This document shows positions 1-62,419 of a stretch of DNA of 64,000 nucleotides, piece by piece. The notes beneath the pieces are model-generated. The model saw nothing but the letters and a program-made list of their open reading frames with translations. It was not told the origin of the DNA and searched no databases. Position numbers and translations under genes: made by a program. This DNA comes from Escherichia phage AnYang. Each line of letters opens with the position of its first letter. The stretch's first letter is position 1. Where the stretch lies: sequence record MK234886; one strand, 5' to 3'.

Positions 1-130
1 CGAACATCTGTGCTTTAAAATTATTCCATGAACCTTGGTCGGCAATGAAATCCCAATCAGAATTTTCGATATACTTACTTTCAATCAGACCAGCATGGTG
101 CAGTGCACGAGAACCAATAACTAACATCAT
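1..130 (-). CDS. hypothetical protein, 5' part only (3' end lies beyond window start)
   Basis: ATG at 128-130 (minus) with GAGGAAA RBS upstream; reading frame MMLVIGSRALHHAGLIESKY... stays open to position 1. Confidence 0.4.
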   Translation of the reverse strand, partial: MMLVIGSRALHHAGLIESKYIENSDWDFIADQGSWNNFKAQMF

Positions 131-149
131 AATATTTTCCTCAGTAAAC

Positions 150-389
150 TTAAATTTCGGCAACATAAGTATTATGCAATTCCCACATATCATCGGAATT
201 ACTCTCAACGATAGGAATTATCTCATTAGAGATTTCTTCTGCATAAGGGTCATTGATACAATGGGCATCTTCAAAACGAACACCGTAATCAGACTTCTTA
301 TAAGCAAAGCCATAAATCTTTTTAAACTTGGCACGAGTAATGCGTACCGGTTCATTAGACTTATCGGACATCGGAGCGTAATACCACAT
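150..389 (-). CDS. hypothetical small protein (79 aa)
   Basis: ORF track; GAGGAG RBS 5 nt upstream of ATG; early promoter-like element immediately upstream. Confidence 0.55.
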   Translation of the reverse strand: MWYYAPMSDKSNEPVRITRAKFKKIYGFAYKKSDYGVRFEDAHCINDPYAEEISNEIIPIVESNSDDMWELHNTYVAEI

Positions 390-416
390 ATGTTCTCCTC
401 ATGTTTGTGTAGGGTA

Positions 417-445
417 ATAGTAACACGTATTTTTAGAGTTGTACA
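417..445 (-). promoter_or_regulatory. sigma70-type early promoter (TGTACA-N17-TACTAT, TG-extended) on minus strand
   Basis: hexamers read on minus strand; -10/leader/RBS module near-identical to the one at 56099-56158. Confidence 0.45.
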
Positions 446-762
446 TCACTTCTGCAATATTCTAAAAATAATTTATCGTTGTCTACCGTATCCCAACGAC
501 GCCAAGATGGATTCCAGACCAGAGCGTTGTCACCACAATCATTGAGCTTAAAATGGTCGTAGTACATAGCTATACGTTTAGTCTCGTCGCCAGAGAACCC
601 CAGTATAGGCTCACCGTGGGTATGATACATATGATGGTGCATTGAGAGGTCGCATTTGTAAAACATCTCACGTTTACCACGAACGAACAAGAAGGCTTGC
701 CCATTCATATAGAATTCTTTATCTGTTTTCAAAAGATATTTGAATACTGAATCTTTATGCAT
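433..762 (-). CDS. hypothetical His-rich protein (SMHHHMYHTHGEP); ORF track start 783, start 762 preferred
   Basis: internal ATG at 762 has AGGAGG RBS with 4-5 nt spacer; ATG at 783 has weaker signal. Confidence 0.5.
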   Translation of the reverse strand: MHKDSVFKYLLKTDKEFYMNGQAFLFVRGKREMFYKCDLSMHHHMYHTHGEPILGFSGDETKRIAMYYDHFKLNDCGDNALVWNPSWRRWDTVDNDKLFLEYCRSDVQL

Positions 763-3183: not shown

Positions 3184-3777
3184 TTACTTAAGTGAATTAA
3201 TGTAGTCGTCGATATCGGCAGAAGTCGTATCCATTCCAACTTGTGGGCCTTTAAACGTTTCTACACGCAGCAGGGTATCTTCAATATCAATCTTAGTCAG
3301 TGCAGCGATTTCAACAACATCATCGGCAGTAGCAATACCAAGGGCAGCCATATTGCGAGTTTCACGGATGTACTCGAGCTTAACGGCCAGTTCCTGACGA
3401 GAGTCATCAAGTTCCTTGACCTTCAGTTTAATTTCATTACGCATTTCGATATAATCATCGGCCTTCTTACGAAGCTGAGTAGCTGTACGACGATAAAGGA
3501 GGCCAAGTTTAGCATGTACCTGGACATCAGCACCTTCGGCAATCAGTTTACGAATTTCACGTTCTTTAGAAGCGGCAAGCTGGTCTTTTTCATTAGCCAA
3601 CGCACGAATACGTTTTTCTTCATTCACAGACTTAACATGAGCGGTCTGGAGTTCAGTAATTTTATCAATCAGGGTAGAAGCAGCTTTGGTGTATTGGTCT
3701 TCGATTGACAGGTTCTGAGCCATTGCAGTACCCAGTTTAGAACGGATGAATTCAACGATTTTCTTTAAAGTGTTCAT
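3184..3777 (-). CDS. hypothetical coiled-coil protein (197 aa)
   Basis: ORF track; AAGGAAA RBS; heptad-rich charged sequence. Confidence 0.55.
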
Positions 3778-3819
3778 AGTATTTCCTTCAGTTGATTAAG
3801 ATTTATAATCCATGAGGAC

Positions 3820-3848
3820 ATTATACCCTGTCCTCTGAGGTTTGTAAA
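3820..3848 (-). promoter_or_regulatory. sigma70-type early promoter TTTACA-N17-TATAAT with overlapping stem-loop GAGGACA...TGTCCTC
   Basis: hexamers and inverted repeat read on minus strand upstream of 3184-3777 gene. Confidence 0.5.
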
Positions 3849-3852
3849 TATT

Positions 3853-4251
3853 TTATTTCATTTTTGCGAGGCAAATTTCATTGGCTTCCCATTGAGCTTG
3901 CTTAATAATAGCTTTGGATACAGGAACCCTTTGGCCATAAGTTTTTGACGTTGAGAGAACAATATGTTTGTTTGCTTCATTATGCCAGCCCCATGATTTT
4001 TCGCCATGAGTACCTTTAACTACAGCTGACACCTCAACAGAGCAACCACCATCAGAAATCTTGGTTTCGACAATCCATTCATTTCTTTCGACGGCTTCAA
4101 GTTCTAATCTAGTTTTTTCTTCATACATAGCGGCCCAATCAGTTTTTGCCAAGTTGAAAGTAAGAGCTTTCTCCAATTCTTTGGCAGCTTTTTGTTGTTC
4201 AGGCGTTAATGAATTATACAACTCTTGCATTTCTTTATCTTCGATATTCAT
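3853..4251 (-). CDS. hypothetical protein (132 aa)
   Basis: ORF track; GAGGAG RBS. Confidence 0.5.
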   Translation of the reverse strand: MNIEDKEMQELYNSLTPEQQKAAKELEKALTFNLAKTDWAAMYEEKTRLELEAVERNEWIVETKISDGGCSVEVSAVVKGTHGEKSWGWHNEANKHIVLSTSKTYGQRVPVSKAIIKQAQWEANEICLAKMK

Positions 4252-4276
4252 TATGTTCTCCTCAAATTACGGGCTC

Positions 4277-4306
4277 ATAATATCTTAATCATGAGCCCGT
4301 GTAAAC
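4277..4306 (-). promoter_or_regulatory. early promoter GTTTACA-N17-TATTAT with stem-loop CGGGCTCAT...ATGAGCCCG
   Basis: read on minus strand upstream of 3853-4251 gene. Confidence 0.45.
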
Positions 4307-4308
4307 AA

Positions 4309-4572
4309 TTATTTCATATTATTGAAATAATCTTCCGCATCAAAATCGTTATCATGATAAACTTTGGTAGACAATTTAGCATAACCTTCAGCTGAGAACA
4401 TATTAATCACAACCTTAATTGTATACCATTGTCCATCATCATTACCCATTACTGCGTAAGTTTCAAATATAGGATGGTCATCACCTATAACCTTAATATC
4501 GTTAACAGTAGCACCAAATTCTTCAGGAACGCATTTCATAAAGAAATTAAACAATTCACCATAATTATCCAT
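4309..4572 (-). CDS. hypothetical protein (87 aa; ORF track start 4587 is GTG, ATG at 4572 preferred)
   Basis: AAGGAGAG RBS upstream of ATG 4572. Confidence 0.5.
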   Translation of the reverse strand: MDNYGELFNFFMKCVPEEFGATVNDIKVIGDDHPIFETYAVMGNDDGQWYTIKVVINMFSAEGYAKLSTKVYHDNDFDAEDYFNNMK

Positions 4573-4607
4573 TTTACTCTCCTTCACTCTGTTGTTTTGA
4601 TAGGTCT

Positions 4608-4636
4608 ATAGTATCATGTTTAAAGGAGGTGTAAAC
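4608..4636 (-). promoter_or_regulatory. early promoter GTTTAC-N17-TACTAT (TG-extended)
   Basis: read on minus strand; member of repeated TGATACTATAGRCCTATCAAAAC module. Confidence 0.5.
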
Positions 4637-5303: not shown

Positions 5304-5331
5304 TGGTATTTCCTAAGTTAATTAACTTATC

Positions 5332-5339
5332 TATTTATA
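5332..5339 (-). promoter_or_regulatory. T4-type late promoter TATAAATA (minus strand)
   Basis: exact TATAAATA about 30 nt upstream of ATG 5303, leader AACTTAGGAAATA. Confidence 0.55.
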
Positions 5340-5345
5340 CAAAAA

Positions 5346-5365
5346 GCCCAACCTTTCGGAAGGGC
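5346..5365 (-). terminator. hairpin GCCCUUCCGAAAGGUUGGGC + U-run (minus strand)
   Basis: inverted repeat followed by TTTTTG on minus strand, downstream of 5372-5926 gene. Confidence 0.5.
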
Positions 5366-5371
5366 TGTAAA

Positions 5372-5926
5372 TCAGTTCTTATAGAATCGGAACGGGTTTA
5401 CGTGGAAGGCTAACATAGCCTTAGGGATTTTACGAGACAAAAGACTCTTAAGTTTCCAACCACAGTACACGCGAAGGTAAAAGGTAATACCTCCAACCTT
5501 AAGATAAGGAACCGAAGCAAAAACTCCCCATGCGTCATCATTCCACATCCATAGCCACCCGTGATGAGCTTTATCAGGGGAACCTGATTCCACATCAGGA
5601 TTACCGCGATAATGGAATTCTGAGCTACAATCACGTCCGAGTTTATGGTAAGCAAAGTTATAAGCTTTATTTCGCCATAGCCAAGCTACTCTCTGGAGAT
5701 AAACGCCAAAAGGTAGTTTTCTGATTTTAGCCCAACGTTTAATGTGACCTTTATCACCGTCAATTGGATTATCGTATGTCATCATCCAATCAAAGCCATA
5801 TGGTAATTTACCGGTCTTTTTATTGTGGAAAGGGACTACAAAAGGTGCAAGGATAACAGCCAGAACCATAGAGATAAAATCTAGAGGGACCAACAGAACC
5901 CAACTCAAATATTTTAAAAGTTTCAT
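5372..5926 (-). CDS. hypothetical membrane-anchored Trp-rich protein (184 aa), late-expressed
   Basis: N-terminal hydrophobic helix WVLLVPLDFISMVLAVILAPFVV; TATAAATA late promoter and AGGAAA RBS upstream. Confidence 0.55.
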   Translation of the reverse strand: MKLLKYLSWVLLVPLDFISMVLAVILAPFVVPFHNKKTGKLPYGFDWMMTYDNPIDGDKGHIKRWAKIRKLPFGVYLQRVAWLWRNKAYNFAYHKLGRDCSSEFHYRGNPDVESGSPDKAHHGWLWMWNDDAWGVFASVPYLKVGGITFYLRVYCGWKLKSLLSRKIPKAMLAFHVNPFRFYKN

Positions 5927-5952
5927 ATTATTTCCTAAGTTAGTTTACTACA

Positions 5953-5960
5953 TATTTATA
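5953..5960 (-). promoter_or_regulatory. T4-type late promoter TATAAATA (minus strand)
   Basis: exact TATAAATA about 27 nt upstream of ATG 5926. Confidence 0.55.
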
Positions 5961-5967
5961 CAAAAAA

Positions 5968-5989
5968 GGCCCGACCTTTCGGAAGGGCC
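5968..5989 (-). terminator. hairpin GGCCCUUCCGAAAGGUCGGGCC + U-run (minus strand)
   Basis: inverted repeat followed by TTTTTTG; third copy of same element at 47703-47725. Confidence 0.5.
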
Positions 5990-5995
5990 TTTAAC

Positions 5996-6225
5996 CTAGG
6001 GTAACCTTGTCGGGGTTCCACCTGCTAGGCAAGTGTTCGGTGCGCCGTTTCAGCTGTGATATAAGGGACTTTAAGAGGAACTCATGTACGCCTTAAAGTC
6101 GGGTCTTATTCAGGGAACTTCAGTCCGACGACTTACCGGTAGCGACCCGGTTTCTTGTTTGTTGCGCCGGTGAATGCTGGTAATCAGTCTTCATACGACG
6201 GCTTGACTATATAATAGTCTTCATT
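5996..6225 (-). ncRNA. candidate small stable RNA(s) adjacent to tRNA-Arg (positional analogue of T4 RNA C/D)
   Basis: 230 nt with no ORF over 25 codons and no RBS, between tRNA-Arg and a terminator; no canonical tRNA T-loop found. Confidence 0.25.
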
Positions 6226-6300
6226 TGGTATCCCGCCCTGGGATCGAACCAGGACCGCAAACTTAGAAGGATCGTATGCTATCCATTACACCAGCGGGAC
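6226..6300 (-). tRNA. tRNA-Arg (anticodon UCU), CCA encoded
   Basis: 75 nt cloverleaf read on minus strand: 7-bp acceptor stem, T-arm CCUGG-UUCGAUC-CCAGG, anticodon loop CUUCUAA. Confidence 0.85.
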
Positions 6301-6305
6301 GTAAT

Positions 6306-6971
6306 TCAAAATTTTATTTTACGGCCTTTATTCCAACCTTCAGGAATAATATCCGTTTTGTTAATACGTTTAGAAACTTTTTCTTCTAAAGAATGAATCC
6401 ACATTTTTCCATATCCGGAATTATTTTCACCTTGTTGGTGTTTATTTCTGGCGTGAGATTCTTTCATTTTATTTTTGGTTTCATCTGAATGGGTCTTACC
6501 CAAGAAAGATTTAGTATTTGAAAATTTCTCTCTATACTTAGGATTATCCCAAAGTTGTTTAAACCTTTCTGAACCCATTTTACGATATTTTTCTTTAAGG
6601 TCTGGGTCGTTCTCAAATCTGGTTTTAAAAGCGGCAACTCCTTTTAAGGAAGCTTCTTTCTTTTTATCTAAATATTCTTCAGTGTTTAAATGGTCCCAAC
6701 CACCTTCACCGCCTAATTTCAAATTATAAACATCGGGGCGCTTTAAAAACTCTTCAGTCACAATATTCTTTTCTGACTCAAACATAGAGATTTTATCGTC
6801 AAAGAACTCTAATATTTCTTTAGAGAAATTTTCTATACCGTATTTGGCCTGGGCCCTTTTCAAGAGTTTACCGGAACCAAAATATGCATCATTCAAATTT
6901 TCGGTTGAATGGGCTCCTATATAGATTTTATTATTAATTTTGTTTGTTATTTTATAAGTGTAATGGAACAT
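6306..6971 (-). CDS. segB: GIY-YIG homing endonuclease, SegB-like (221 aa)
   Basis: N-terminal YTYKITNKINNKIYIGA motif; sits between two tRNA genes as segB does in T4; AGGAGA RBS. Confidence 0.75.
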   Translation of the reverse strand: MFHYTYKITNKINNKIYIGAHSTENLNDAYFGSGKLLKRAQAKYGIENFSKEILEFFDDKISMFESEKNIVTEEFLKRPDVYNLKLGGEGGWDHLNTEEYLDKKKEASLKGVAAFKTRFENDPDLKEKYRKMGSERFKQLWDNPKYREKFSNTKSFLGKTHSDETKNKMKESHARNKHQQGENNSGYGKMWIHSLEEKVSKRINKTDIIPEGWNKGRKIKF

Positions 6972-7012: not shown

Positions 7013-7083
7013 TGGCCCTGGGTGGAATCGAACCACCATCCAGCGATTATGAGTCGCTCGCTTGACCGTCCAGCTACAGGGCC
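7013..7083 (-). tRNA. tRNA with CAU anticodon (Ile2/Met type), CCA not encoded
   Basis: cloverleaf on minus strand: acceptor GGCCCUG/CAGGGCC, anticodon stem-loop GCGA-CUCAUAA-UCGC, T-arm GGUGG-UUCGAUU-CCACC. Confidence 0.8.
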
Positions 7084-8171: not shown

Positions 8172-8356
8172 TATTCACCTTTAGAGATTTTATCCATAAC
8201 AAAAGAGATTGAACCAATTAAAAATGCCACTACTAAAGAGATTATATTCTCGGAAGTTGAAAGCATATCGAGCATGAATCCTGCAAACATACTAAAGCCA
8301 AAAGCAGTAACGGCGGCCAGTGCAGTAACATTTCTAATTAATTCGCAACGTTTCAT
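8171..8356 (-). CDS. small hydrophobic membrane protein (61 aa; ORF track start 8368 is TTG)
   Basis: ATG 8356 with GGAGA RBS; two hydrophobic segments. Confidence 0.45.
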   Translation of the reverse strand: MKRCELIRNVTALAAVTAFGFSMFAGFMLDMLSTSENIISLVVAFLIGSISFVMDKISKGE

Positions 8357-8392
8357 TTTATTCTCCAATCACTCATTTGTTTTGATAGGGCT

Positions 8393-8421
8393 ATAGTATC
8401 ACCACTAGAGCCCGTTGTAAA
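8393..8421 (-). promoter_or_regulatory. early promoter TTTACA-N17-TACTAT with stem-loop
   Basis: read on minus strand upstream of 8171-8356 gene. Confidence 0.5.
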
Positions 8422-8424
8422 CAA

Positions 8425-8698: not shown

Positions 8699-8920
8699 TT
8701 ATTCTACGCCAGCGGCTTTCAAAAGTTTTTTAAGATTGGCGGTGCCTTGAGCAGAAAATGTGACCTTGCCGCCTTTTTCGCTGATGCTCCCAGTCAATTT
8801 AGCAAGTTTATCACTAGAGACTTTTTTAAAATCAGCCAATGTACCGTCAAAGGTTTTTGTAACAACCGGCAGTTGGTCATGTTTTTTAGCTTCTGTAATA
8901 AATTCTTGATAAGCTTTCAT
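8699..8920 (-). CDS. internal-protein-like small protein with leader MKAYQEFITEA (73 aa)
   Basis: CTS-like N-terminus; GGAAA RBS; tightly coupled to downstream IP-like ORF. Confidence 0.55.
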   Translation of the reverse strand: MKAYQEFITEAKKHDQLPVVTKTFDGTLADFKKVSSDKLAKLTGSISEKGGKVTFSAQGTANLKKLLKAAGVE

Positions 8921-8957
8921 TTTGATTTCCGTTTGGTTAGTTTGTTTTGATAGGTCT

Positions 8958-8986
8958 ATAGTATCACGCCTATAGACCTTGTAAAC
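8958..8986 (-). promoter_or_regulatory. early promoter GTTTAC-N17-TACTAT with perfect 10-bp stem-loop AGGTCTATAG...CTATAGACCT
   Basis: read on minus strand upstream of IP-like genes. Confidence 0.55.
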
Positions 8987-41274: not shown

Positions 41275-41541
41275 CTATGCAATCTTAACTCGTCGATTGA
41301 TGATATCACGGAAGTCAATACGATTTTCTTGGATTTTCAGCCAGTTACCAGATTTGTCTTTGGTATGGGTAGAGTATTCACCGTTCCACCAGAAGTCAGT
41401 TTCATAAGCTAGGGCTTCGTATTTCTTAACCAATGCATTAACTGCATTACCGTTAGGATTGGTACCAAATTTTTCTACCAGAGCTTTGATGTCTTTGTCA
41501 AGGTTAGAAAGCGTGGTACGGATAAAGTTTAATTTGTTCAT
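41275..41541 (-). CDS. hypothetical protein (88 aa) in the position occupied by segD in T4
   Basis: ATG 41541 with GAGGAG RBS; early promoter upstream; no GIY-YIG motif. Confidence 0.5.
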   Translation of the reverse strand: MNKLNFIRTTLSNLDKDIKALVEKFGTNPNGNAVNALVKKYEALAYETDFWWNGEYSTHTKDKSGNWLKIQENRIDFRDIINRRVKIA

Positions 41542-41570
41542 TTTTAATCTCCTCATGTTTTGATAGGTCT

Positions 41571-41599
41571 ATAGTAACACGACGCTTTTTGTGTGTAAA
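41571..41599 (-). promoter_or_regulatory. early promoter GTTTACA-N17-TACTAT (minus strand)
   Basis: same repeated module as 4608-4636 and 8958-8986. Confidence 0.45.
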
Positions 41600-41606
41600 C
41601 CACTTT

Positions 41607-41614
41607 TATAAATA
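41607..41614 (+). promoter_or_regulatory. late promoter TATAAATA for gene 24
   Basis: exact consensus about 30 nt upstream of ATG 41644. Confidence 0.55.
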
Positions 41615-47471: not shown

Positions 47472-47695
47472 AAACCTTTAAAGAAGTTATTCAGGAAGCA
47501 TCTATTGAAAGCTTCATGTCTAAAATTAGTTCTTGTCAGACCATGGACGGTCTGGAGGAATTGGAGAAGTATTACAAAACTCGTAGTAAGGAAGCCGAAC
47601 TTCGTGATTCGGATGATATTAGCGTGCGCGATGCATTGGCTGGTAAGAGAGCTGAATTGGAGTCGATGGACGACGAGGAAGAGGAAGATTTCTAA
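47468..47695 (+). CDS. uvsW.1: UvsW.1 small acidic protein
   Basis: 75 aa, ATGA overlap with uvsW stop. Confidence 0.7.
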   Translation: MKTFKEVIQEASIESFMSKISSCQTMDGLEELEKYYKTRSKEAELRDSDDISVRDALAGKRAELESMDDEEEEDF

Positions 47696-47702
47696 ACAAA
47701 AA

Positions 47703-47725
47703 GGGCCCAACCTTTCGGAAGGGCC
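47703..47725 (-). terminator. hairpin GGCCCUUCCGAAAGGUUGGGCCC + U-run (minus strand)
   Basis: third copy of the element at 5346 and 5968; T-run on minus strand. Confidence 0.5.
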
Positions 47726-47755
47726 AATAACCATAAAATGGCTATACACACTAGA

Positions 47756-55775: not shown

Positions 55776-55782
55776 CAAAAAA

Positions 55783-55800
55783 GGAGAGCGTATGCTCTCC
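55783..55800. terminator. bidirectional hairpin GGAGAGC-GUAU-GCUCUCC flanked by A6 and U-run
   Basis: between convergent gene 54 and minus-strand early ORF. Confidence 0.55.
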
Positions 55801-55810
55801 TTTAGGGGGT

Positions 55811-56101
55811 TTATTTACGGAACGAAATGAAACCTGCAGCAGTCATTAATGGTTGCTTTTTAACAAATACCGTAACTGAAATAGGAGCTTCGGATTCAAG
55901 CTGACCGGTCACTACACCATTAAAAATGTTTTCGGTTTGTTCCGGCTGAGAAAAGTTCTCAACAGGTCGGATATCAAATTGCTTATCTTCACCGAAAACT
56001 CGACGCAATTCATTACCAACTGCACTGTCAAACTCTTCGGAAGCAGGGATAACGTTTTCAACTACCAGTTCTTGACCGTTAAAGCGGAATGCAGATTTCA
56101 T
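55811..56101 (-). CDS. hypothetical protein (96 aa)
   Basis: ORF track; GAGGAG RBS; early promoter upstream. Confidence 0.5.
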   Translation of the reverse strand: MKSAFRFNGQELVVENVIPASEEFDSAVGNELRRVFGEDKQFDIRPVENFSQPEQTENIFNGVVTGQLESEAPISVTVFVKKQPLMTAAGFISFRK

Positions 56102-56129
56102 AATGTTCTCCTCATGTTTGTGTAAGGTA

Positions 56130-56158
56130 ATAGTACCACATCCTTGTGGTGTTGTAAA
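56130..56158 (-). promoter_or_regulatory. early promoter TTTACA-N17-TACTAT; -10/leader/RBS near-identical to 387-422
   Basis: plus-strand text ATGTTCTCCTCATGTTTGTGTARGGTAATAGTA shared with the 390-422 region. Confidence 0.5.
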
Positions 56159-58282
56159 CTACATTTTGAATTTATTTGGTAGAGCAGAGATATCCAAAGA
56201 TGCCGCTAAGATTTCCATAGCCTCGTTGCTTTCAGAAACAGATTCACTAACCAAGAACTGTTTAAAGCCATCCATCGGACGAACTTCACCGGTTTCCATC
56301 AAATGGTCGCCATCGTAAACAGATTCACTGAGCTCTGAAGGAGACATCACTGTAGCTTCCATAAGGTATTTGTGAGATACCCTATCATTCATAGCAAAAG
56401 CCGCTACTTTATCGACCTTCATCAATAATCCGCGCGGAAGGATAATTTCTGCTTCTTCAGCGTATTCTGTAAGGTCACCTGGAGCGATAACTTTAACTGC
56501 TTCAGCACCTCGAATAACCATACCAATTTCAGCAATTCTATCCGCAGGGCCTTCAGGTGCAATTGGATTACCAAACTCGTCTTCTTCCCATTCTACCTCT
56601 TCGTCATCGACTTCACCCACATCAGATGAACTACCACTAGCCAATTTAAACAACTCATCAGCGGAGGATAAAGAACCTTCACCACCAACAAAAACGGCTT
56701 GGTTGTCGAGGGCCATATAATTTTTACCGAATTCACCAAAGATGTTAGGTTTTAGTGAGGCAGATACAAAGTTCTTAAAGTAAAATGTTTTGTTATCAAT
56801 ATTATGGCGCAGAATTTTGTATGGCAAATCCTGACCACGATACAAAATAGTACCCTTAGGAAGTTTAATACCCTTAGTAAATGCTGAGTCTAAATCCTTA
56901 ATCAATTTAATAGCCGTTGTATTGTTTTCGGATTCAGGTTTACCTAAAAGGAATAAGTTCATAGGAGCATATTCAGCAGCGCAATATTCAATAATAGCAT
57001 TGCTTTCATCTTTGGTTAGGTCCTTAGGTTTAATGAGCTCACCTGAATAAGCATATGCATCACTAATAGAATCGTTAATTAGTTTATAAACGGCTTCCAT
57101 AGCGAAAGCAATTCGGGATGCTTTCTCTGAAGGGGAGCCTTTAAAACGGGTACTCAGGTTATTAACAATTTTCTTAATAATATCCAGACTATTGGTTGTA
57201 TTGATTTGCGAAAGGCCGCTTAAAAGTCTATCGACTTCTGTATTAAAAAATGCCATATTTTTAGAGTAAATTTCAAACCCTTGTTTATCTCTATTAGCAT
57301 AATTTAGTTTAAATTTACTATCAGTCATTAAAGCGTGCGTGAGAGCAATGGTGTATCTAAAGTTGGCAAGGTCCTCGCTCTTAGATTTAAACTGAGAAGC
57401 CTGGCGCATTTTGGTAATAGCACCTTTTTTAAAGTTCTGACTAATCTGCTCAATACCTTCGTTCTCAGGGCCTTCGGCAGTGTGAACCGGCACAGAAGCT
57501 TCAAACTCATTATAAACCTGCAATTCTTTAGGGGACAAAGTTTCAGGCTCAGCAGTAGAATACTGTGCGGCTGCTGCCATACGACGGGAAATCTTAGTAC
57601 GAGTAATAACAGCCTTATCAGTACGTTTCTCTTCAACCTTAGCAATACTTGCCGAGACGGCTTCGACCTTACTTACAGACTGACCTGTTTTCTTGGATAC
57701 ATAAACTTCGCCGACTTTAGAATCGACTTTGGTATAAAGGTCAGCATCAATTTCGGGCATACCTTTGATATCTTCAATATTAGTACCACGACGTACTAAA
57801 AGAACGTAGGTATGTTTACCACTGAATTGGAACATATCATCGACAACTTTAAACTTACCACCGGTACGGGCCATCGCCAAACGTGCCAATACCCGCTGAA
57901 CAGTAGGGCCTTTACCTTTCATTTTCTTGGTAGGAAAACGGAATAAAACCGCATCCATTTTAAGTTTGTTTACTTGTTCGTATGCAGTATCAAAAATGGT
58001 ATTCAGCGTACCGAGTGGATCGGTACCCAAACCACCTTTGAGTTCTGCCGGAGCGCCTTTAGCAGACAAACTCATTAAGATGACATGGACGTACTTATCG
58101 CCTGGCTTAACCATTTTAATAGCATCGCCTTCAGACGCGTATGAAACCATACGCGCCACTAAATTGTCATTACCAGGAGCATGAACCGCAAAAATCTGCG
58201 GTATGCCCGAGCCAGGTTTAAGATTTGTTACTGGGTAATTTTTTTTATCACTTTTATCAAAAACTTCGTTTAAATTTTCCAT
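56159..58282 (-). CDS. Alt-like ADP-ribosyltransferase paralog 1 (707 aa)
   Basis: N-terminal about 220 aa near-identical to paralog 2; C-terminal R-S-E motifs LYRGQ, FVSASL, EAEIILPRG. Confidence 0.85.
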   Translation of the reverse strand: MENLNEVFDKSDKKNYPVTNLKPGSGIPQIFAVHAPGNDNLVARMVSYASEGDAIKMVKPGDKYVHVILMSLSAKGAPAELKGGLGTDPLGTLNTIFDTAYEQVNKLKMDAVLFRFPTKKMKGKGPTVQRVLARLAMARTGGKFKVVDDMFQFSGKHTYVLLVRRGTNIEDIKGMPEIDADLYTKVDSKVGEVYVSKKTGQSVSKVEAVSASIAKVEEKRTDKAVITRTKISRRMAAAAQYSTAEPETLSPKELQVYNEFEASVPVHTAEGPENEGIEQISQNFKKGAITKMRQASQFKSKSEDLANFRYTIALTHALMTDSKFKLNYANRDKQGFEIYSKNMAFFNTEVDRLLSGLSQINTTNSLDIIKKIVNNLSTRFKGSPSEKASRIAFAMEAVYKLINDSISDAYAYSGELIKPKDLTKDESNAIIEYCAAEYAPMNLFLLGKPESENNTTAIKLIKDLDSAFTKGIKLPKGTILYRGQDLPYKILRHNIDNKTFYFKNFVSASLKPNIFGEFGKNYMALDNQAVFVGGEGSLSSADELFKLASGSSSDVGEVDDEEVEWEEDEFGNPIAPEGPADRIAEIGMVIRGAEAVKVIAPGDLTEYAEEAEIILPRGLLMKVDKVAAFAMNDRVSHKYLMEATVMSPSELSESVYDGDHLMETGEVRPMDGFKQFLVSESVSESNEAMEILAASLDISALPNKFKM

Positions 58283-58285
58283 TAT

Positions 58286-60331
58286 TTACCCTTGGATGAA
58301 TTTTTCTGGGATTTCGTCAAAATTAATACATGAAGCTAAAATAGGCATTATATCCACTTTGGTCGATTTGACAAATGAATCAAAAGACACAGGGTTGTCG
58401 GTCTCTGTTTCTACACCTTGGTAAACAACCAATTCGCCTGTTTCCATCAATGCATCACCATCATAGATAACCGCATTTTCTGCTAGTTGGTCTGTGGTCT
58501 GGATATCTGCTTCCAATAATTTGGTGTTGTAGTTTCCTTTATATGAAGCATCAGTAATTTTAGTAATCTTAACTGTAGTTCCACGTGGAAGAATAACCTC
58601 TTGTTCTGTTGGAGAACCTGACAATTCACCAGGCATAATTACGTTAATAGAGTCTGCACCAGAAATTTTCCAGCCGATGTTCATCATTGTATTTTCGGAA
58701 CTCGTCAGCATACTTGGAAGAACAATTTCATTATCGCCTTGGAAAGATGTCCCAGCGCGATAGTCTTGATGTACTGCTGCCATTGCGACGTTTGATACCC
58801 AGCCGCCAAAGATAATCGGCTTAAGGGACGTTGATACATAGTTCCTGAAATAAAACAATTTTGAGTGCTTGATTTTATCAAAAGTGTTAACATTTAAATA
58901 TTGGCCACGCCAAAGTGTAATATCAGGTGGCAATTTATGACCAATTTCAAATGCCGCATCCATATCATTAATTACTTCAATTACACGCTGACTATCAATG
59001 AATTCTGCATCCTCTTCATAATAATTACCCAACAAATAATTATTAACATCGGTATAATATTGGCCGCAATAAGAAGAAATAGCCTCACGCTGCTCATACT
59101 CAAATCGATTATCGCTATAACCTGCTGTAAAATGCATAAGACTTTCTGATGCTTCATTAGCAAAGTCGGTAACAGCAGCACTTATACGTTGAGCATACTC
59201 TTGTTCCCAAAGCTCTGCTGCATATTCTGACGCATCCATATTAGGAGGGGCCTCATTCATTTTTCTTTCGATAAATGCAGCTTTGCGAAGGTTAAGAATC
59301 TCTGCACATGATTCGGCAAAAATCTGCATCTGCTTCATACTGCCGACAGGAGCACGTTTAAGTTCACGATGCATACGGTTAAAAATTGGGTCAGAGTCTT
59401 CGACTCGAATTTCTTCTTTCCAAACACCATTTGCTCGCATAGCCGTATCTGCCGCGCGCATACGGTCCATAGTATTCGTTTCAGAAGGTCGAACAAAAAT
59501 TTCCAGTTCTTCATAATCATCGATAAGTTCTGCCGTAGCCGGTCGACTAAACTTAGCAGCTTCTGCATCAATTTCGTCCCAACCTTCCGGAACTTCATCT
59601 CGAGGAGAATATTGGGCTGCGGCTACAGCACGCCTAGAAATCTTGGTAGTAGTAATGACAGCCTTATCAGTACGTTTTTCTTCGACTGCCGCTATACTAG
59701 CAGATAGTGCTTCTATTTTGGTTACTGATTGGCCTGTTTTCTTAGAAACATAAACCTCACCAACTTTAGAATCGACTTTAGTATAAAGGTCAGCATCAAT
59801 TTCGGGCATACCTTTTATGTCCTCAATATTAGCTTGTTTACGAACCAGTAAAACATATGTATGTTTGCCTGTAAATTGATACAGGCCATCAACAACTTTA
59901 AACTTACCGCCAGTACGAGCCATAGCCAAACGAGCTAATACGCGCTGAATAGTGGGACCCTTACCTTTCATTTTCTTAGTAGGGAAACGGAAAAGAACTG
60001 CATCCATTTTAAGTTTATTTACTTGTTCATATACCGTATCGAAAATGGTATTCAATGTACCAAGTGGGTCAGAACCTAACCCACCTTTCAACTCGGCTGG
60101 GGTACCCTTAGCAGACAAACTCATCAAAATAACATGAACATATTTGTCGCCCGGCTTAACCATTTTAATAGCGTCTCCTTGAGACGCATAAGATACCATA
60201 CGAGCGACCAAGTTATCATTACCTGGTGCTTGGATAGAGAAAATCTGTGGAATACCGGAACCTGGTTTAAGATTTATTACTGGATAGTTTTTAGCGGAAT
60301 CACTATCAAAAACTTCGTTTAAATTTTCCAT
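58286..60331 (-). CDS. Alt-like ADP-ribosyltransferase paralog 2 (681 aa)
   Basis: motifs LWRGQ, YVSTSL, EQEVILPRG; 3 nt from paralog 1 start. Confidence 0.85.
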   Translation of the reverse strand: MENLNEVFDSDSAKNYPVINLKPGSGIPQIFSIQAPGNDNLVARMVSYASQGDAIKMVKPGDKYVHVILMSLSAKGTPAELKGGLGSDPLGTLNTIFDTVYEQVNKLKMDAVLFRFPTKKMKGKGPTIQRVLARLAMARTGGKFKVVDGLYQFTGKHTYVLLVRKQANIEDIKGMPEIDADLYTKVDSKVGEVYVSKKTGQSVTKIEALSASIAAVEEKRTDKAVITTTKISRRAVAAAQYSPRDEVPEGWDEIDAEAAKFSRPATAELIDDYEELEIFVRPSETNTMDRMRAADTAMRANGVWKEEIRVEDSDPIFNRMHRELKRAPVGSMKQMQIFAESCAEILNLRKAAFIERKMNEAPPNMDASEYAAELWEQEYAQRISAAVTDFANEASESLMHFTAGYSDNRFEYEQREAISSYCGQYYTDVNNYLLGNYYEEDAEFIDSQRVIEVINDMDAAFEIGHKLPPDITLWRGQYLNVNTFDKIKHSKLFYFRNYVSTSLKPIIFGGWVSNVAMAAVHQDYRAGTSFQGDNEIVLPSMLTSSENTMMNIGWKISGADSINVIMPGELSGSPTEQEVILPRGTTVKITKITDASYKGNYNTKLLEADIQTTDQLAENAVIYDGDALMETGELVVYQGVETETDNPVSFDSFVKSTKVDIMPILASCINFDEIPEKFIQG

Positions 60332-60334
60332 TAT

Positions 60335-62419
60335 TTACCCTTGGATGAATTTTTCTGGGATGTCATAGAGGTCTATGCATGAAGCCAAAAGAGACAGCAC
60401 ATCAACCCGTGTAGATTTAACAAATGAATCAAAAGATACGGGGCTTTCGGAAGTATCGAAATCATCTTGATATACGACCAACTCGCCGGTTTCCATTAGT
60501 ACGTCACCATCATACACCACAGATTCTTGAAGCTCATCTGTTGTCATAACTTCAGCTTGGATGAGTTTTGTATTATTAGATGTTCTTCCATCATTATTAG
60601 ACGCATCTGTTATTTTATTAACTTTGACCATTAATCCACGCGGTAGAATAACTTCAGCTTCAGTTGCTATTCCGAGATTTCCTGGATATACAACATTAAC
60701 TTTATGAGCCCCATCAATCGCCCATCCTATTTGAACTTTAACGTAATCAGGATTTTCTTTATATGCTCTTATTTCATTAGGATTAATAGTTATTCCTTCT
60801 TCATTTTTATCGACCGTCAATTCATTACGAACTTCCGGTTCTAAAAGACCGATACCGGCGTGCGTAACACCAAAACGACCAAAAATGATAGGAGTTAAAG
60901 AAGTAGATACAAAATTTCTGAAATAGAACACTTTATTTTTAACTAGTGCTTCGTATATAGGAGCAGTCATACTCTGTGCACGATAAACTGTGATGCCTTC
61001 TGGTATACGGTCGCCATTTTCGAAAGCAGAATCCAAATTATTAACTGCAGATTCGATATCTTTTTCACTCATAATCTCATAGTTCTGAGGATTGTAACGA
61101 CCTAAAAGAAGGTTATTTATATCGCCGTATCCAGAGCCACAATATTCTCTGATGCCACGCTTTTGTGATGGGGTGTATTTAGAACCCTCACGAGCAATAG
61201 TAATATCAATCATTGAACCACCACCCACACCAGCAAAACTATACACGCGTTTTTTAATGAATTTGGTCTTGGATGCTTTCCACTTGGACTCGGTCAATTC
61301 ATTCCAGAGGTCGTCAGGTTGGCCTTTACGAGTTTTGTTATGCGTAGCCAACCATTCGCCTTTGTATTCTTCGAAAACGGTATTAATAGCAGAGGCATAT
61401 TTTTCTAGAGCTTTAACAGATGTCAAAGGTTCGTTTTTGATGGCTGATAGGATTTTCTCTTTAATTTTCTCTTTGATTTCACCTATACCGTGAAGAGGAA
61501 ACATTTTATAATCGTAATGCAATTCTTCAGCAGTGCCTTCAGCTACTATATTAGCAACCTTATTTTTAGCCGCAGGAGAATTGTTATTAGTAACCATTTC
61601 CTGGGCCTCAGGGATTAATGGAGCTGTTGCAGGTTTATTAAAATCTACGGCATTTGCTTCATATTTCTTAAACAGTTCACTTTCATTACGATAAGATTCT
61701 AACGATTGACTTGCTGCAATGGCACGACGAGAAATCTTAGTCTTGGTTATAACCATTTTATCAGTGCGACGTTCTTCAACTTTAGCAATACTGCCGGCAA
61801 TAGCAGTTTCTTTAGTAACCTGCACACCTTCTTTTTTAGAAATATAAACTTCACCGACATCAGAATCTACCTTAGTATATAATTCAGCATTAATTCCTGG
61901 CATACCTTTGATATCTTCGATATCGGCCTGTTTACGAACTACTAGGATATAAGTATGCTTGCCTGTAAATTGGTACATAGCTGGAATTACTTTGAAGCGC
62001 CCACCAGTTTTTTGAGTTACTAAACGTTGGATAATTCTCTGGACAATAGGGCCTTGTCCTTTCATTTTCTTGGTAGGAAAACGGAACATCACGGCATCCA
62101 TACGAAGCTTTTTAACTTGTTCGAATACTGCGTCGAAAATGGTATTAATAGCATCAATAGGAGTGGGACCAAGGCCACCCTTAAGTTCGGCTGGAGTACC
62201 TTTAGCTGATAAACTCATCAAAATAACGTGGGCATATTTATCACCCAATTTAACTTGTTTAATGGCGTCGCCTTCAGAGGCATAGGATACCATACGAGCA
62301 ACCAATTGGGATTCTGCGTCGCCTATCTTCCAAATCTGGGGTACTTTAAGTTTAGGGTTCAAGTTTACTGTAGGCAGTGTGCCTTCGGACTCAAACACTT
62401 CATTTAATTGTTCGGTCAT
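60335..62419 (-). CDS. alt: Alt ADP-ribosyltransferase (694 aa), copy adjacent to gene 30
   Basis: motifs VYRAQ, FVSTSL, EAEVILPRG; AGAGGAA RBS. Confidence 0.85.
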   Translation of the reverse strand: MTEQLNEVFESEGTLPTVNLNPKLKVPQIWKIGDAESQLVARMVSYASEGDAIKQVKLGDKYAHVILMSLSAKGTPAELKGGLGPTPIDAINTIFDAVFEQVKKLRMDAVMFRFPTKKMKGQGPIVQRIIQRLVTQKTGGRFKVIPAMYQFTGKHTYILVVRKQADIEDIKGMPGINAELYTKVDSDVGEVYISKKEGVQVTKETAIAGSIAKVEERRTDKMVITKTKISRRAIAASQSLESYRNESELFKKYEANAVDFNKPATAPLIPEAQEMVTNNNSPAAKNKVANIVAEGTAEELHYDYKMFPLHGIGEIKEKIKEKILSAIKNEPLTSVKALEKYASAINTVFEEYKGEWLATHNKTRKGQPDDLWNELTESKWKASKTKFIKKRVYSFAGVGGGSMIDITIAREGSKYTPSQKRGIREYCGSGYGDINNLLLGRYNPQNYEIMSEKDIESAVNNLDSAFENGDRIPEGITVYRAQSMTAPIYEALVKNKVFYFRNFVSTSLTPIIFGRFGVTHAGIGLLEPEVRNELTVDKNEEGITINPNEIRAYKENPDYVKVQIGWAIDGAHKVNVVYPGNLGIATEAEVILPRGLMVKVNKITDASNNDGRTSNNTKLIQAEVMTTDELQESVVYDGDVLMETGELVVYQDDFDTSESPVSFDSFVKSTRVDVLSLLASCIDLYDIPEKFIQG

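Follow-up and report, generated by a model that had tools for sequence, protein, structure and literature searches.

What does it mean that nearly the same promoter, leader and ribosome site stand before two small genes about 55 kb apart in a T4-like phage? The 64,000-nucleotide stretch analyzed here (the window) comes from Escherichia phage AnYang (MK234886), a Dhakavirus, that is, a JS98/IME08-like T4-type coliphage, with 94–97% nucleotide identity to IME08, IME281 and other Dhakaviruses. A preliminary description had treated the two sequences, here called modules A and B, as a duplicated module. The repeat is real, but the duplication is no isolated event: among about 45 early-gene units, one other pair is still more alike. 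Modules A and B very probably both belong to a family of immediate-early expression units of this phage, with a shared leader variant that was copied between units.

Extent of the A/B repeat

The 40-nt sequence quoted for module B is found exactly as given at 56101–56140. Its counterpart in module A is also present, at 388–427 rather than 389–428, and a short copy of the ribosome site, ATGTTCTCCTCA, lies at 4253–4264 rather than 4251–4262; the earlier coordinates of these two were thus 1–2 nt off. The two 40-mers are identical at 35 of 40 positions in an ungapped comparison counted by eye. Aligned from −10 hexamer to ATG, with one 1-nt gap, the modules agree in 35 of 37 columns, and the identity includes an exact 22-mer (TACACAAACATGAGGAGAACAT) and an exact 10-mer. 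A 33-nt pattern built on this stretch matches twice in the window and never in 100 dinucleotide-preserving shuffles. Independently, a repeat finder placed 390–458, 56103–56171 and 41544–41612 in one family (D6).

The two modules are direct repeats on the minus strand, each running up to and including the start codon of a minus-strand ORF. The parts had been named correctly at the outset as start codon, GAGGAG ribosome site, leader and −10 box. Near-identity is confined to the −10 box, the leader, the Shine–Dalgarno site and the ATG, and the −35 box and spacer are alike only at the level of the promoter consensus. A crossover between A and B would delete 55.7 kb of essential late genes; no recombinant joining the two was seen.

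Module B and the alt.-3 locus

Module B (56099–56159, minus strand) is a complete early expression unit before alt.-3, as judged from the sequence, a promoter scan, the ORF list and orthologues. Its −35 box GTTTACA (56159–56153) overlaps the TAG stop codon (56161–56159) of the upstream alt gene. A TGn element (56138–56136) occupies the 3′ end of the 17-nt spacer and is followed by the −10 box TACTAT (56135–56130), a predicted transcription start at an A (56123), placed by the usual 7-nt distance, the Shine–Dalgarno sequence GAGGAG (56113–56108), and the ATG (56101–56099). The promoter scan returned TTTACA-17-TACTAT with an upstream TG. The extended −10 element reads TGG before TACTAT, and an A/T-rich tract, AAATAAATTCAAAATG, lies upstream. 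The module fills the entire 57-nt gap between alt and alt.-3. It is predicted to drive the alt.-3 ORF (55811–56101, minus strand), which encodes 96 residues of the DUF5498 family according to the ORF list and Pfam. A computationally predicted intrinsic terminator, a hairpin followed by a T-run (55780–55803, minus strand), closes the unit and lies back-to-back with the end of late gene 54.

Units orthologous to B are present in IME08, JS98, T2 and T4. In T4 and T2 the promoter occupies the same position at alt.-3, overlaps the upstream stop codon and is followed by a related leader, CTTAC...ACATGAGGA. In the T4 GenBank record, the alt/alt.-3 stretch carries no annotated promoter. Judged by sequence, B is an old resident promoter, ancestral at alt.-3. 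It is invariant in 36 records, and its flanks differ by 4–10%. The neighboring alt paralogues vary in copy number, and three of them stand beside B. One match to module B, in ESCO10, appeared from the product name 'endonuclease V' to be a transposed copy. This was rejected, as the gene sizes and order are those of the alt/alt.-3 locus and the product names look displaced.

The spacer of B contains an inverted repeat, ACCACA-AGGA-TGTGGT (56135–56150, minus strand), found by folding, whose 3′ arm is the extended −10 element (TGTGn). The 6-bp stem has a predicted energy of −6.9 kcal/mol (z −2.0), a stability that 11 of 200 shuffles also reach. Phages of Jiaodavirus, Winklervirus and Karamvirus keep the core CCACA-NGGA-TGTGGTA at other loci, and the T4 and T2 orthologues of B lack it. 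In an unbiased scan with GTTTAC-N10-GGATGTGGTA, structure and shared descent were confounded for the CCACA arm.

The same hairpin contains ACAAGGATGT, the core of the CsrA SELEX consensus RUACARGGAUGU. As a CsrA site this was not retained, one match against 0.28 expected not being significant alone. The motif that contains ACAAGGATGT is in phase with the −10 box, and this speaks for a role at the level of the promoter.

Module A and its locus

Module A (387–446, minus strand), defined from the sequence, the ORFs and the IME08 annotation, is predicted to drive a 79-residue ORF (150–389, minus strand) of the IME08 orf117/RB69 ORF135c family. Its weak −35 box, (A)TGTACA (446–440), lies inside the end of the upstream ORF, the TAA stop codon of which (435–433) falls within the spacer. 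The TGn element (425–423), the −10 box TACTAT (422–417), a putative transcription start at an A (410), GAGGAG (400–395), and the ATG (389–387) follow. With a poor −35 box (TGTACA) in coding sequence, A falls below the threshold of a simple promoter scan. It shares the geometry of B (TGTACA-17-TACTAT) and the extended −10 element (TGT before TACTAT), and its upstream A/T-rich tract is AAATTATTTTTAGAATATT. All Dhakavirus copies retain the G/ATGTACA −35 box, as does Gaprivervirus UPEC07.

The ORFs downstream of A and B are unrelated, as had been suspected. BLASTP gives no alignment between them at E ≤ 100, and the 79-residue ORF has neither a Pfam family nor homology to alt.-3. In Gaprivervirus and Mosigvirus the orthologue of the A gene has a majority-type leader; in Kanagawavirus it lacks a promoter. 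Among Dhakaviruses, A is not more conserved than its coding flanks and drifts equally fast, suggesting that selection on A at the nucleotide level is weak. Substitutions are tolerated at several leader positions, including the Shine–Dalgarno sequence, which is GAGGGG in dhaeg.

According to the IME08 annotation, module A is located in the small-ORF region that separates gene e from the tRNA genes. The gene after the A ORF has the ribosome-site module TGAGGAAAATATTATG (128–143, minus strand), identified in a five-genome alignment. JS98 and dhaeg have two direct copies of this 16-mer, one on either side of an additional 183-bp ORF that the window lacks. The indel probably arose by recombination at the repeated start modules.

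A family of early expression units

A composite genome contains about 45 curated units of like geometry, nine of them in the window. All lie on the early (minus) strand, and each is followed by a Shine–Dalgarno site, an ATG and an ORF. Over the 990 possible pairs, identity from the −10 box to the ATG has a median of 63%, a 95th percentile of 81% and a 99th percentile of 89%. The A–B pair ranks second, and its identity thus exceeds that of a generic strong ribosome site plus −10 box, in line with the original suggestion. The other top-ranked pairs likewise precede unrelated ORFs. The −10 box is mostly TACTAT, and the start region is CCTATCAAC in most units and CCTTACAC in A and B.

The other members of the family described here also lie on the minus strand of the window. 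The short copy mentioned above belongs to a third unit (4249–4306; sequence and family listing) before the ORF at 3853–4251. It consists of GTTTACA, a 13-bp hairpin (CGGGCTCATGATT/AATATTATGAGCCCG; −21.5 kcal/mol, z −6.3) containing the −10 box TATTAT, and then TTTGAGGAGAACATAATG. Its GGAGAACATAA has one mismatch to the RegB/S1 consensus. The unit at 41539–41600 (repeat finder D6 and family listing), GTTTACA-N17-TACTAT followed by AGACCTATCAAAACATGAGGAGATTAAAAATG, combines a majority-type start region with the A/B-type ACATGAGGAGA. Three further members contain hairpins. In the unit at 8354–8422 the hairpin (GGGCTCTAG...CTATAGCCC; z −3.4) spans the spacer and the −10 box, and the ribosome site is a perfect GGAGAATAAAA. 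The unit at 8918–8986 (repeat finder D5) has a 10-bp hairpin (AGGTCTATAG...CTATAGACCT; z −5.2) that encloses the −10 box. The unit at 3775–3849 (family listing), ATTTACA-N17-TATAAT, has a hairpin GAGGAC...GTCCTC around the −10 box.

A different pairing characterizes a sizeable anti-SD class, in which the spacer just after the −35 box carries (A/T)TCTCC+N6 and pairs with the unit's own Shine–Dalgarno region, N6′+GGAGA, over 10–14 bp. The pairing shows apparent gene-specific covariation and is found in the units of regB, alc, IME08 7817 and other IME08 units, as well as in Karamvirus-type genomes. The window unit at 4570–4636 was assigned to this class by repeat finder D5 and spacer/SD complementarity; it is not among the 14 units of the anti-SD test. 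Its spacer, ACCTCCTT, is complementary to its own Shine–Dalgarno region, AAGGAGAG, with a duplex energy of −11.3 kcal/mol and its own leader as the best partner; the fold of the whole unit has a z of −1.0.

Modules A and B lack the anti-SD feature of their siblings, both in the duplex test and in longer folds. Module A has no stem-loop (z +0.75). No structure emerges when longer stretches of RNA around A and B are folded (z ~0), which argues against a riboswitch-like or SD-masking element. Rfam detects only two tRNAs in the window and no family for the shared leader.

RegB/S1 target-like sites

The RegB/S1 target is a single-stranded 11-nt sequence, GG^AGRAYARAA, at which the phage nuclease RegB, assisted by ribosomal protein S1, cuts early mRNAs within minutes (Durand 2006 PMC1702504; Uzan & Miller 2010 PMC3014915). 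In T4 sites, GGAG is the Shine–Dalgarno sequence of an early gene and is followed by an A-rich heptamer, with GGAGAAUAAAA as the optimum (PMC1702504; PMC3014915). C is largely excluded from the A-rich part (Durand 2006 PMC1702504).

The same arrangement, GGAG followed by an A-rich heptamer in a predicted single-stranded context, is found here. Of the 45 ribosome sites, 9 match GGAGRAYARAA perfectly and 18 have at most one mismatch. GGAG starts 9–11 nt 5′ of the ATG in well-matched ribosome sites, mostly 10 (9 in module A), and positions 5, 6, 8, and 11 are A in 20–27 of 29 units. Over the whole window the motif is not enriched (10 found, 10.9 expected). The apparent RegB signal is positional, residing at early ribosome sites.

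Unlike the T4 sites, A (GGAGAACAUAU) and B (GGAGAACAUUA) each match the consensus at 9 of 11 positions and carry a C at position 7. Both have the consensus A at positions 6 and 8, but only B has it at position 11. IME08 has an annotated regB gene, some 7 kb before the window begins, and cleavage of the sites is a prediction.

The leader precedes unrelated genes

In IMG/VR Dhakavirus-type contigs, the exact 22-mer shared by A and B precedes four different genes: the orf117-like gene, alt.-3, alc (in VR5), and an 88-residue ORF on two metagenome contigs. A 2-nt variant precedes CC31p108 in Karamvirus CC31, and a related leader precedes CHI14 gp108. The A/B-type leader is thus found before at least five unrelated genes in several Tevenvirinae genera, and nearly identical 29-nt sequences precede unrelated genes in at least three genera. 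The notion of a portable cassette holds in this sense: one leader serves several genes, and orthologous genes can differ in their leaders.

The alc locus gives the most direct comparison. The −35 box and spacer of alc are identical in VR5, JS98, IME08, IME341, and phage 005. VR5 has the A/B-type leader, whereas the other four have another leader. The VR5 alc unit shares 32 consecutive nucleotides with VR5's own B unit (L011) and with B of the window. Its leader differs from those of the four relatives at 11 of 47 aligned columns, and all changes are toward the B sequence; the binomial probability of at least 11 differences in 36 sites at a background of 12% is ~0.0025. In a sliding-window comparison with IME08, the leader patch alone stands out, and no clear break marks a recombination junction at the promoter (80–97% identity on both sides).

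These data bear on purely vertical descent under purifying selection, in which A and B would be old paralogous promoters that never exchanged sequence and the leader would be one of few optima. This reading is improbable, if less so than the other alternatives. The invariance of B between divergent flanks is in its favor, and the CTTACAC start region is common in Karamvirus-type promoters and may be a repeatedly reached optimum. The one-directional changes and long identity of the VR5 alc leader argue against it, as do the unrelated leaders of orthologous A genes in other genera and the drift of A at the rate of its flanks, a sign that A is not strongly constrained.

Slightly less probable still is a dedicated cis-regulatory RNA operator, recognized by a specific phage or host RNA-binding protein beyond RegB/S1 in a small set of co-regulated genes. 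Such an operator would fit the 29 nt shared across genera and the strict conservation of B. However, the leader has no significant secondary structure and no Rfam family, module A tolerates leader substitutions even in its Shine–Dalgarno sequence, and the A/B sequence grades continuously into the majority leader type.

Chance or convergence, by which any strong ribosome site after a good −10 box would look this similar, is very unlikely. Consensus elements are common to all early units, the median identity is already 63%, and the GAGGAGAACA-type ribosome site recurs in many of them. Against this stand the rank of the pair, the result with the 33-nt pattern and the recurrence of the exact 22-mer on other genes in other genomes; moreover, the identity spans the non-consensus TACC.TACACAAACAT, unlike the majority AGACCTATCAAC. 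A remnant of segmental duplication, with a gene and its upstream region copied and the ORFs diverged beyond recognition, is the least credible explanation: tandem gene duplication did occur nearby, at alt, but the A and B ORFs belong to different families, the similarity breaks off precisely at the ATG and weakens upstream of the −10 box, and orthologues of each ORF have different leaders in other genera.

Proposed origin and function of the A/B units

The preferred reading, two members of an early-unit family with an exchanged leader variant, comprises three layers. A T4-type early promoter (A/T-rich upstream tract, GTTTACA-type −35 box, 16–17-nt spacer and TGn-TAYTAT) would recruit the host σ70 RNA polymerase. 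The transcript would begin near (C)TTACAC with a G-poor, unstructured 5′ leader of about 22 nt. A start region GAGGAG-AAYAnn-ATG (N6/7 to the ATG) would provide a strong Shine–Dalgarno site that resembles a RegB/S1 target. The expected effect is a burst of small-ORF synthesis immediately upon infection and then a rapid shut-off.

One shared leader variant is the best explanation for why A and B are more alike than the family background. Short-patch homologous recombination or gene conversion may have carried the variant from one paralogous regulatory region to another, the mechanism and direction being inferred, and selection on promoter escape, on translation and possibly on RegB recognition may then have maintained it. 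B would be the old resident at alt.-3, and A would most likely have gained the variant before the Dhakaviruses radiated. At the level of sequence, shared descent of paralogous promoters and later gene conversion are not formally separable. Transcription start sites, promoter activity, and RegB cleavage are likewise predicted from the DNA.

Comparison with known systems

The kind of element to which A and B belong has already been described, as T4 early promoters and as PeSLs. T4 early promoters have extra consensus beyond UP/−35/TGn/−10 (Hinton 2010 PMC2988021), and RB69 has 57 predicted early promoters, many before novel ORFs (Nolan 2006 PMC1524935). The units here resemble the T4 'uber' class in GTTTAC at −36 to −31, a GT-rich/TGn extended −10 element, a TAnnnT −10 box, an A-rich upstream tract, a C-rich −3 to −1, and a location 5′ of early genes or novel ORFs in dozens of copies per genome. 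Both A and B combine a −35 box, a 16–18-nt spacer and TAnnnT, with the weaker −35 box in A, and have the extended −10 element, the A/T-rich upstream tract and the early-strand location. They differ from the T4 promoters in that the −10 box is mostly TACTAT instead of TATAAT, the start region is strongly conserved, and the promoters are predicted.

A PeSL consists of a stop codon, an AT-rich tract, an early promoter, a stem-loop, a Shine–Dalgarno sequence, and an ATG (Arbiol 2010 PMC2839356; Comeau 2014 PMC4122927). PeSLs have been catalogued in RB49/phi1, T4/PST and KVP40/nt-1, with only 'PeSL-like sequences' near gene 43 in JS98 (PMC2839356; PMC4122927). In RB49, the crossovers of PeSL mini-circles were mapped between the −10 box and the ATG (Arbiol 2010 PMC2839356), the same region that A and B share. 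The layout is also the same, with stop codon, AT-rich tract, promoter, Shine–Dalgarno sequence, and start codon of A and B in one short segment that is repeated before small unrelated early ORFs, mostly in hyperplastic regions. Exchange and indels at the modules are indicated, by comparison of genomes, by the ORF indel beside A, the VR5 alc leader and the varying alt copy number at B.

Stem-loops between or over the −35 and −10 boxes occur here too, in the units whose 5′ ends are at 4306, 8422, 8986, and 3849, and weakly in B. They are strong in the first three (z −3.4 to −6.3), whereas B has its weak 6-bp stem and A none. Unlike the near-perfect TTGACA promoters of RB49, the promoters here are of the T4 GTTTAC type. 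The leader data fit the published concept of the PeSL as a mobile regulatory cassette (Arbiol 2010; Comeau 2014), as far as comparative evidence reaches.

The anti-SD siblings of A and B have other parallels. In T4 e, soc, 49, and I-TevI, a hairpin with an internal late promoter sequesters the Shine–Dalgarno sequence (reviewed in PMC3014915), and anti-SD 'insulation' is known from σ54 promoters (bioRxiv 10.1101/086108). As in the T4 genes, the 5′ arm of the sibling units lies upstream of their own start site and the 3′ arm is the Shine–Dalgarno sequence. The internal promoter is late in the T4 genes but early here, with the 5′ arm in the −35/−10 spacer.

Implications for early gene expression

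Tentatively, the stem-loops of the early-promoter family could act as translational insulators rather than mainly as terminators, with A and B as the 'open' version. Read-through mRNA would then be untranslatable and RegB-resistant at the ORF, and only transcripts from a unit's own promoter would have an accessible ribosome site and be expressed. A and B would be translated from any transcript, and exchange of the A/B leader among genes would amount to a functional choice between insulated and open expression. If real, the covariation of spacer and Shine–Dalgarno sequence would bring early promoters, as well as late ones, under translational control of the T4 lysozyme type and give the 'stem-loop' part of PeSLs a new interpretation.

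The conspicuous long-range repeat is ordinary regulatory architecture of a T4-like genome and in itself matters little. What it yields is a clean annotation of the early promoters, leaders and probable RegB sites of one Dhakavirus; the genus is used in phage-therapy collections. The VR5 alc leader and the ORF indel at the 16-nt repeat add independent examples, from outside RB49, of repeated promoter/ribosome-site modules marking where small early genes have been gained, lost or re-wired.

Architecture of modules A and B

The repeat consists of two early units on the minus strand. Module B (56099-56159) precedes alt.-3 (55811..56101, DUF5498), and module A (387-446) precedes a 79-aa ORF (150..389) resembling orf117 of IME08; both end at the ATG of a minus-strand ORF. 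Between the -10 hexamer and the ATG, 35 of 37 aligned columns are identical, and the two modules share an exact 22-mer, TACACAAACATGAGGAGAACAT. A 33-nt pattern matches twice in the window and never in 100 shuffles. The repeat strings quoted in the preliminary description are all found in the window; its position for the second copy (56101-56140) is exact, and those for the first and third are off by 1-2 nt. The repeat is real and non-random, and was rightly read there as an expression cassette. Comparison of the two downstream ORFs bears out that they are unrelated, and the third, shorter copy is indeed a ribosome site, that of unit 4249-4306. The A/B repeat observation stands.

The -35 box of B, GTTTACA, overlaps the TAG stop codon of alt; that of A reads ATGTACA. 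Both spacers are 17 nt long, and that of A contains the TAA of the upstream ORF. The extended -10 and -10 box are TGG-TACTAT in B and TGT-TACTAT in A, followed by the discriminators TACCTT and TACCCT and the leaders ACACAAACATGAGGAGAACATT-ATG and ACACAAACATGAGGAGAACAT-ATG, respectively. A simple sigma-70 scan detects B (TTTACA-17-TACTAT with TG) but not A, which has the weaker -35 box. The alt.-3 unit ends in a terminator at 55780-55803.

On folding, both leaders are unstructured, A contains no stem-loop, and the B spacer forms only a weak 6-bp hairpin (ACCACA-AGGA-TGTGGT, z -2). Rfam has no match at A or B. The B-type core CCACA-NGGA-TGTGGTA is found at several loci in other genera and is missing from the T4 and T2 orthologues. 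The loop region of the B hairpin (56138-56147, minus strand), ACAAGGAUGU, equals the core of the CsrA SELEX consensus RUACARGGAUGU; one match against 0.28 expected is not significant alone. Many family spacers nevertheless have GGA(U/A/C)G at about -20.

A family of early units

A scan for the A/B geometry, followed by a Shine-Dalgarno sequence, an ATG and an ORF, was run over the window and the rest of an IME08 genome. It gave 49 candidate units, or 45 after four dubious ones were dropped. All 45 lie on the early strand, nine of them in the window. A and B are members of this large family, not a single duplication. The consensus comprises GTTTAC(A/T), TA(C/T)TAT and, between them, a spacer with (G/A)TG(A/T) at its 3' end; the start region reads AGACCTATCAAC in the majority of units but TACCYTACAC in A and B, and the 3' end is (T)GAGGAGAAYAnnATG. 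The A-B pair ranks second of 990 pairs (94.6% identity; median 63%, 99th percentile 89%), and the remaining top-ranked pairs also sit before non-homologous ORFs.

Units 4306, 8422 and 8986 carry strong hairpins across the spacer and -10 box, as do subclasses of the promoter-early stem-loop (PeSL) cassettes of T4-type phages. Separately, unit 3775-3849 (minus strand) and IME08 units 40608 and 139596 have a common leader, GG(T/C)CCT(A/C)(C/T)GGATTATAA(A/C). This leader contains a sequence close to the T4 late promoter TATAAATA; the three may thus be dual early/late units.

Relation to T4 early promoters and RegB sites

T4 early promoters are UP/-35/TGn/-10 promoters with further consensus regions (Hinton 2010, PMC2988021), and RB69 has 57 predicted ones, many ahead of novel ORFs (Nolan 2006, PMC1524935). 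In both T2 and T4, alt.-3 is preceded by a promoter in the identical position, which likewise overlaps the upstream stop codon and has a related leader; B is therefore ancestral at this locus.

The stretch from Shine-Dalgarno to ATG fits the target of the phage nuclease RegB with S1, GG^AGRAYARAA (Durand 2006, PMC1702504; Uzan & Miller 2010, PMC3014915). The fit is perfect in 9 of 45 units and within one mismatch in 18. The GGAG of well-matched units begins 9-11 nt before the ATG, most commonly 10. A and B have two mismatches each, and RegB may plausibly cleave them.

Complementarity between spacer and Shine-Dalgarno region

About 10 of the 45 units have, directly 3' of the -35 box, a spacer segment complementary to the Shine-Dalgarno region of the same unit (permutation p = 0.004). 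The complementary spacer takes the form (A/T)TCTCC+N6, with gene-specific covariation. A pattern search fixing only GTTTACWTCTCC-N9-TGNTAYTAT matched, in other genera, units with 10-14-bp spacer:Shine-Dalgarno duplexes. In 14 distinct units, pairing was scored between the six unconstrained bases that follow TCTCC and the six that precede GGAG: 4.9/6 positions pair within a unit and 2.7/6 across units, and 0 of 20,000 permutations reached the within-unit value.

This class includes 4570-4636 (minus strand) in the window, units with -35 boxes at IME08 positions 57435 (regB), 48804, 7817, 169764, 140884 (alc) and 133588, and loci L118, L119, L124, L125, L126, L133 and L136 from related phages. 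A and B lie outside it. Only in read-through transcripts would the pairing hide the ribosome site. The same logic is known, with late promoters, from T4 genes e, soc, 49 and I-TevI; the promoters here are early.

Genomic setting

Megablast assigns the window to the genus Dhakavirus (JS98/IME08-like T4-type coliphages), with 94-97% identity to IME08, IME341, IME281 and others. Small ORFs and tRNAs occupy positions 1-10.5 kb, downstream of gene e; late structural genes fill the middle on the plus strand; and alt.-3, the alt genes and gene 30 lie at 55.8-64 kb on the minus strand. The regB gene annotated in IME08 falls just outside the window.

Three tandem alt paralogues (RNA polymerase ADP-ribosyltransferase) lie at 56159-58282, 58286-60331 and 60335-62419 (minus strand), with 67-82% identity over repeat blocks and spacings of 2049 and 2094 nt. 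The IME08 annotation lists two, and about 2 kb of extra sequence is present in the alt region of some relatives. Product names appear displaced in the ESCO10 record (OM386655.1, L003), where the alt/alt.-3/gene 54 region is labelled hypothetical protein, endonuclease V and lysozyme; its genes were assigned by size and order.

Inside the tRNA cluster, a 221-aa ORF with a GIY-YIG domain (6306-6971, minus strand) is flanked by tRNA-Arg (6226-6300) and tRNA-Met (7013-7083). Its NUMOD3 motif is borderline, just under the Pfam cut-off, and its predicted product resembles a Seg-type homing endonuclease. IME08 has tRNA-Asn there instead, with three tRNAs adjacent. A repeat of about 45 nt (5329-5373, 5952-5996 and 47688-47732) contains a GC-rich hairpin with a TTCG loop (GGCCC.ACCTTTCGGAAGGGCC); its copies are probably shared terminator modules. 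Another of about 47 nt (1448-1494, 1655-1701 and 1946-1992), reading ...TTCCTTAGCA..GAGGAG/GACACCCA on the plus strand, lies at junctions of consecutive small minus-strand ORFs and represents either another repeated junction module or conserved ORF ends.

Probable exchange of leaders among related phages

Fourteen IMG/VR stretches contain the exact 22-mer, which precedes the orf117-like gene, alt.-3, alc (VR5 only) and an 88-aa accessory ORF with a GC hairpin upstream. In CC31 (Karamvirus) and CHI14 (Winklervirus) an almost identical leader follows a terminator hairpin and precedes a further, different gene. JS98, IME08, IME341 and phage 005 share one version of the alc leader; VR5 alc has their -35 box and spacer, but over 32 consecutive nucleotides it matches exactly the B units of both VR5 (L011) and the window. 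In Gaprivervirus and Mosigvirus the A-gene orthologues are preceded by majority-type leaders, and in Kanagawavirus they lack a promoter; module A is no more conserved than its flanks.

JS98 and dhaeg (L112, L113) possess an extra 183-bp ORF immediately downstream of the A gene, missing in the window. A ribosome-site module of 16 nt, TGAGGAAAATATTATG, flanks it as a direct repeat and occurs as a single copy in the window (128-143, minus strand). This arrangement indicates that recombination between repeated start modules has added or removed a gene. PeSLs are composite cassettes of early promoter, stem-loop and Shine-Dalgarno sequence that act as recombination sites and shuffle small ORFs (Arbiol 2010, PMC2839356; Comeau 2014, PMC4122927), with mini-circle crossovers located between the -10 box and the ATG (Arbiol 2010, PMC2839356). 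The distribution of leaders and the 183-bp ORF indel match this concept. An A-B recombinant is not expected, as it would lose the essential 55.7 kb that separates the two modules, and old paralogy and later conversion of the pair cannot be fully separated. The A/B repeat is an instance of the known T4-type early promoter/PeSL architecture, with a RegB-type ribosome site.
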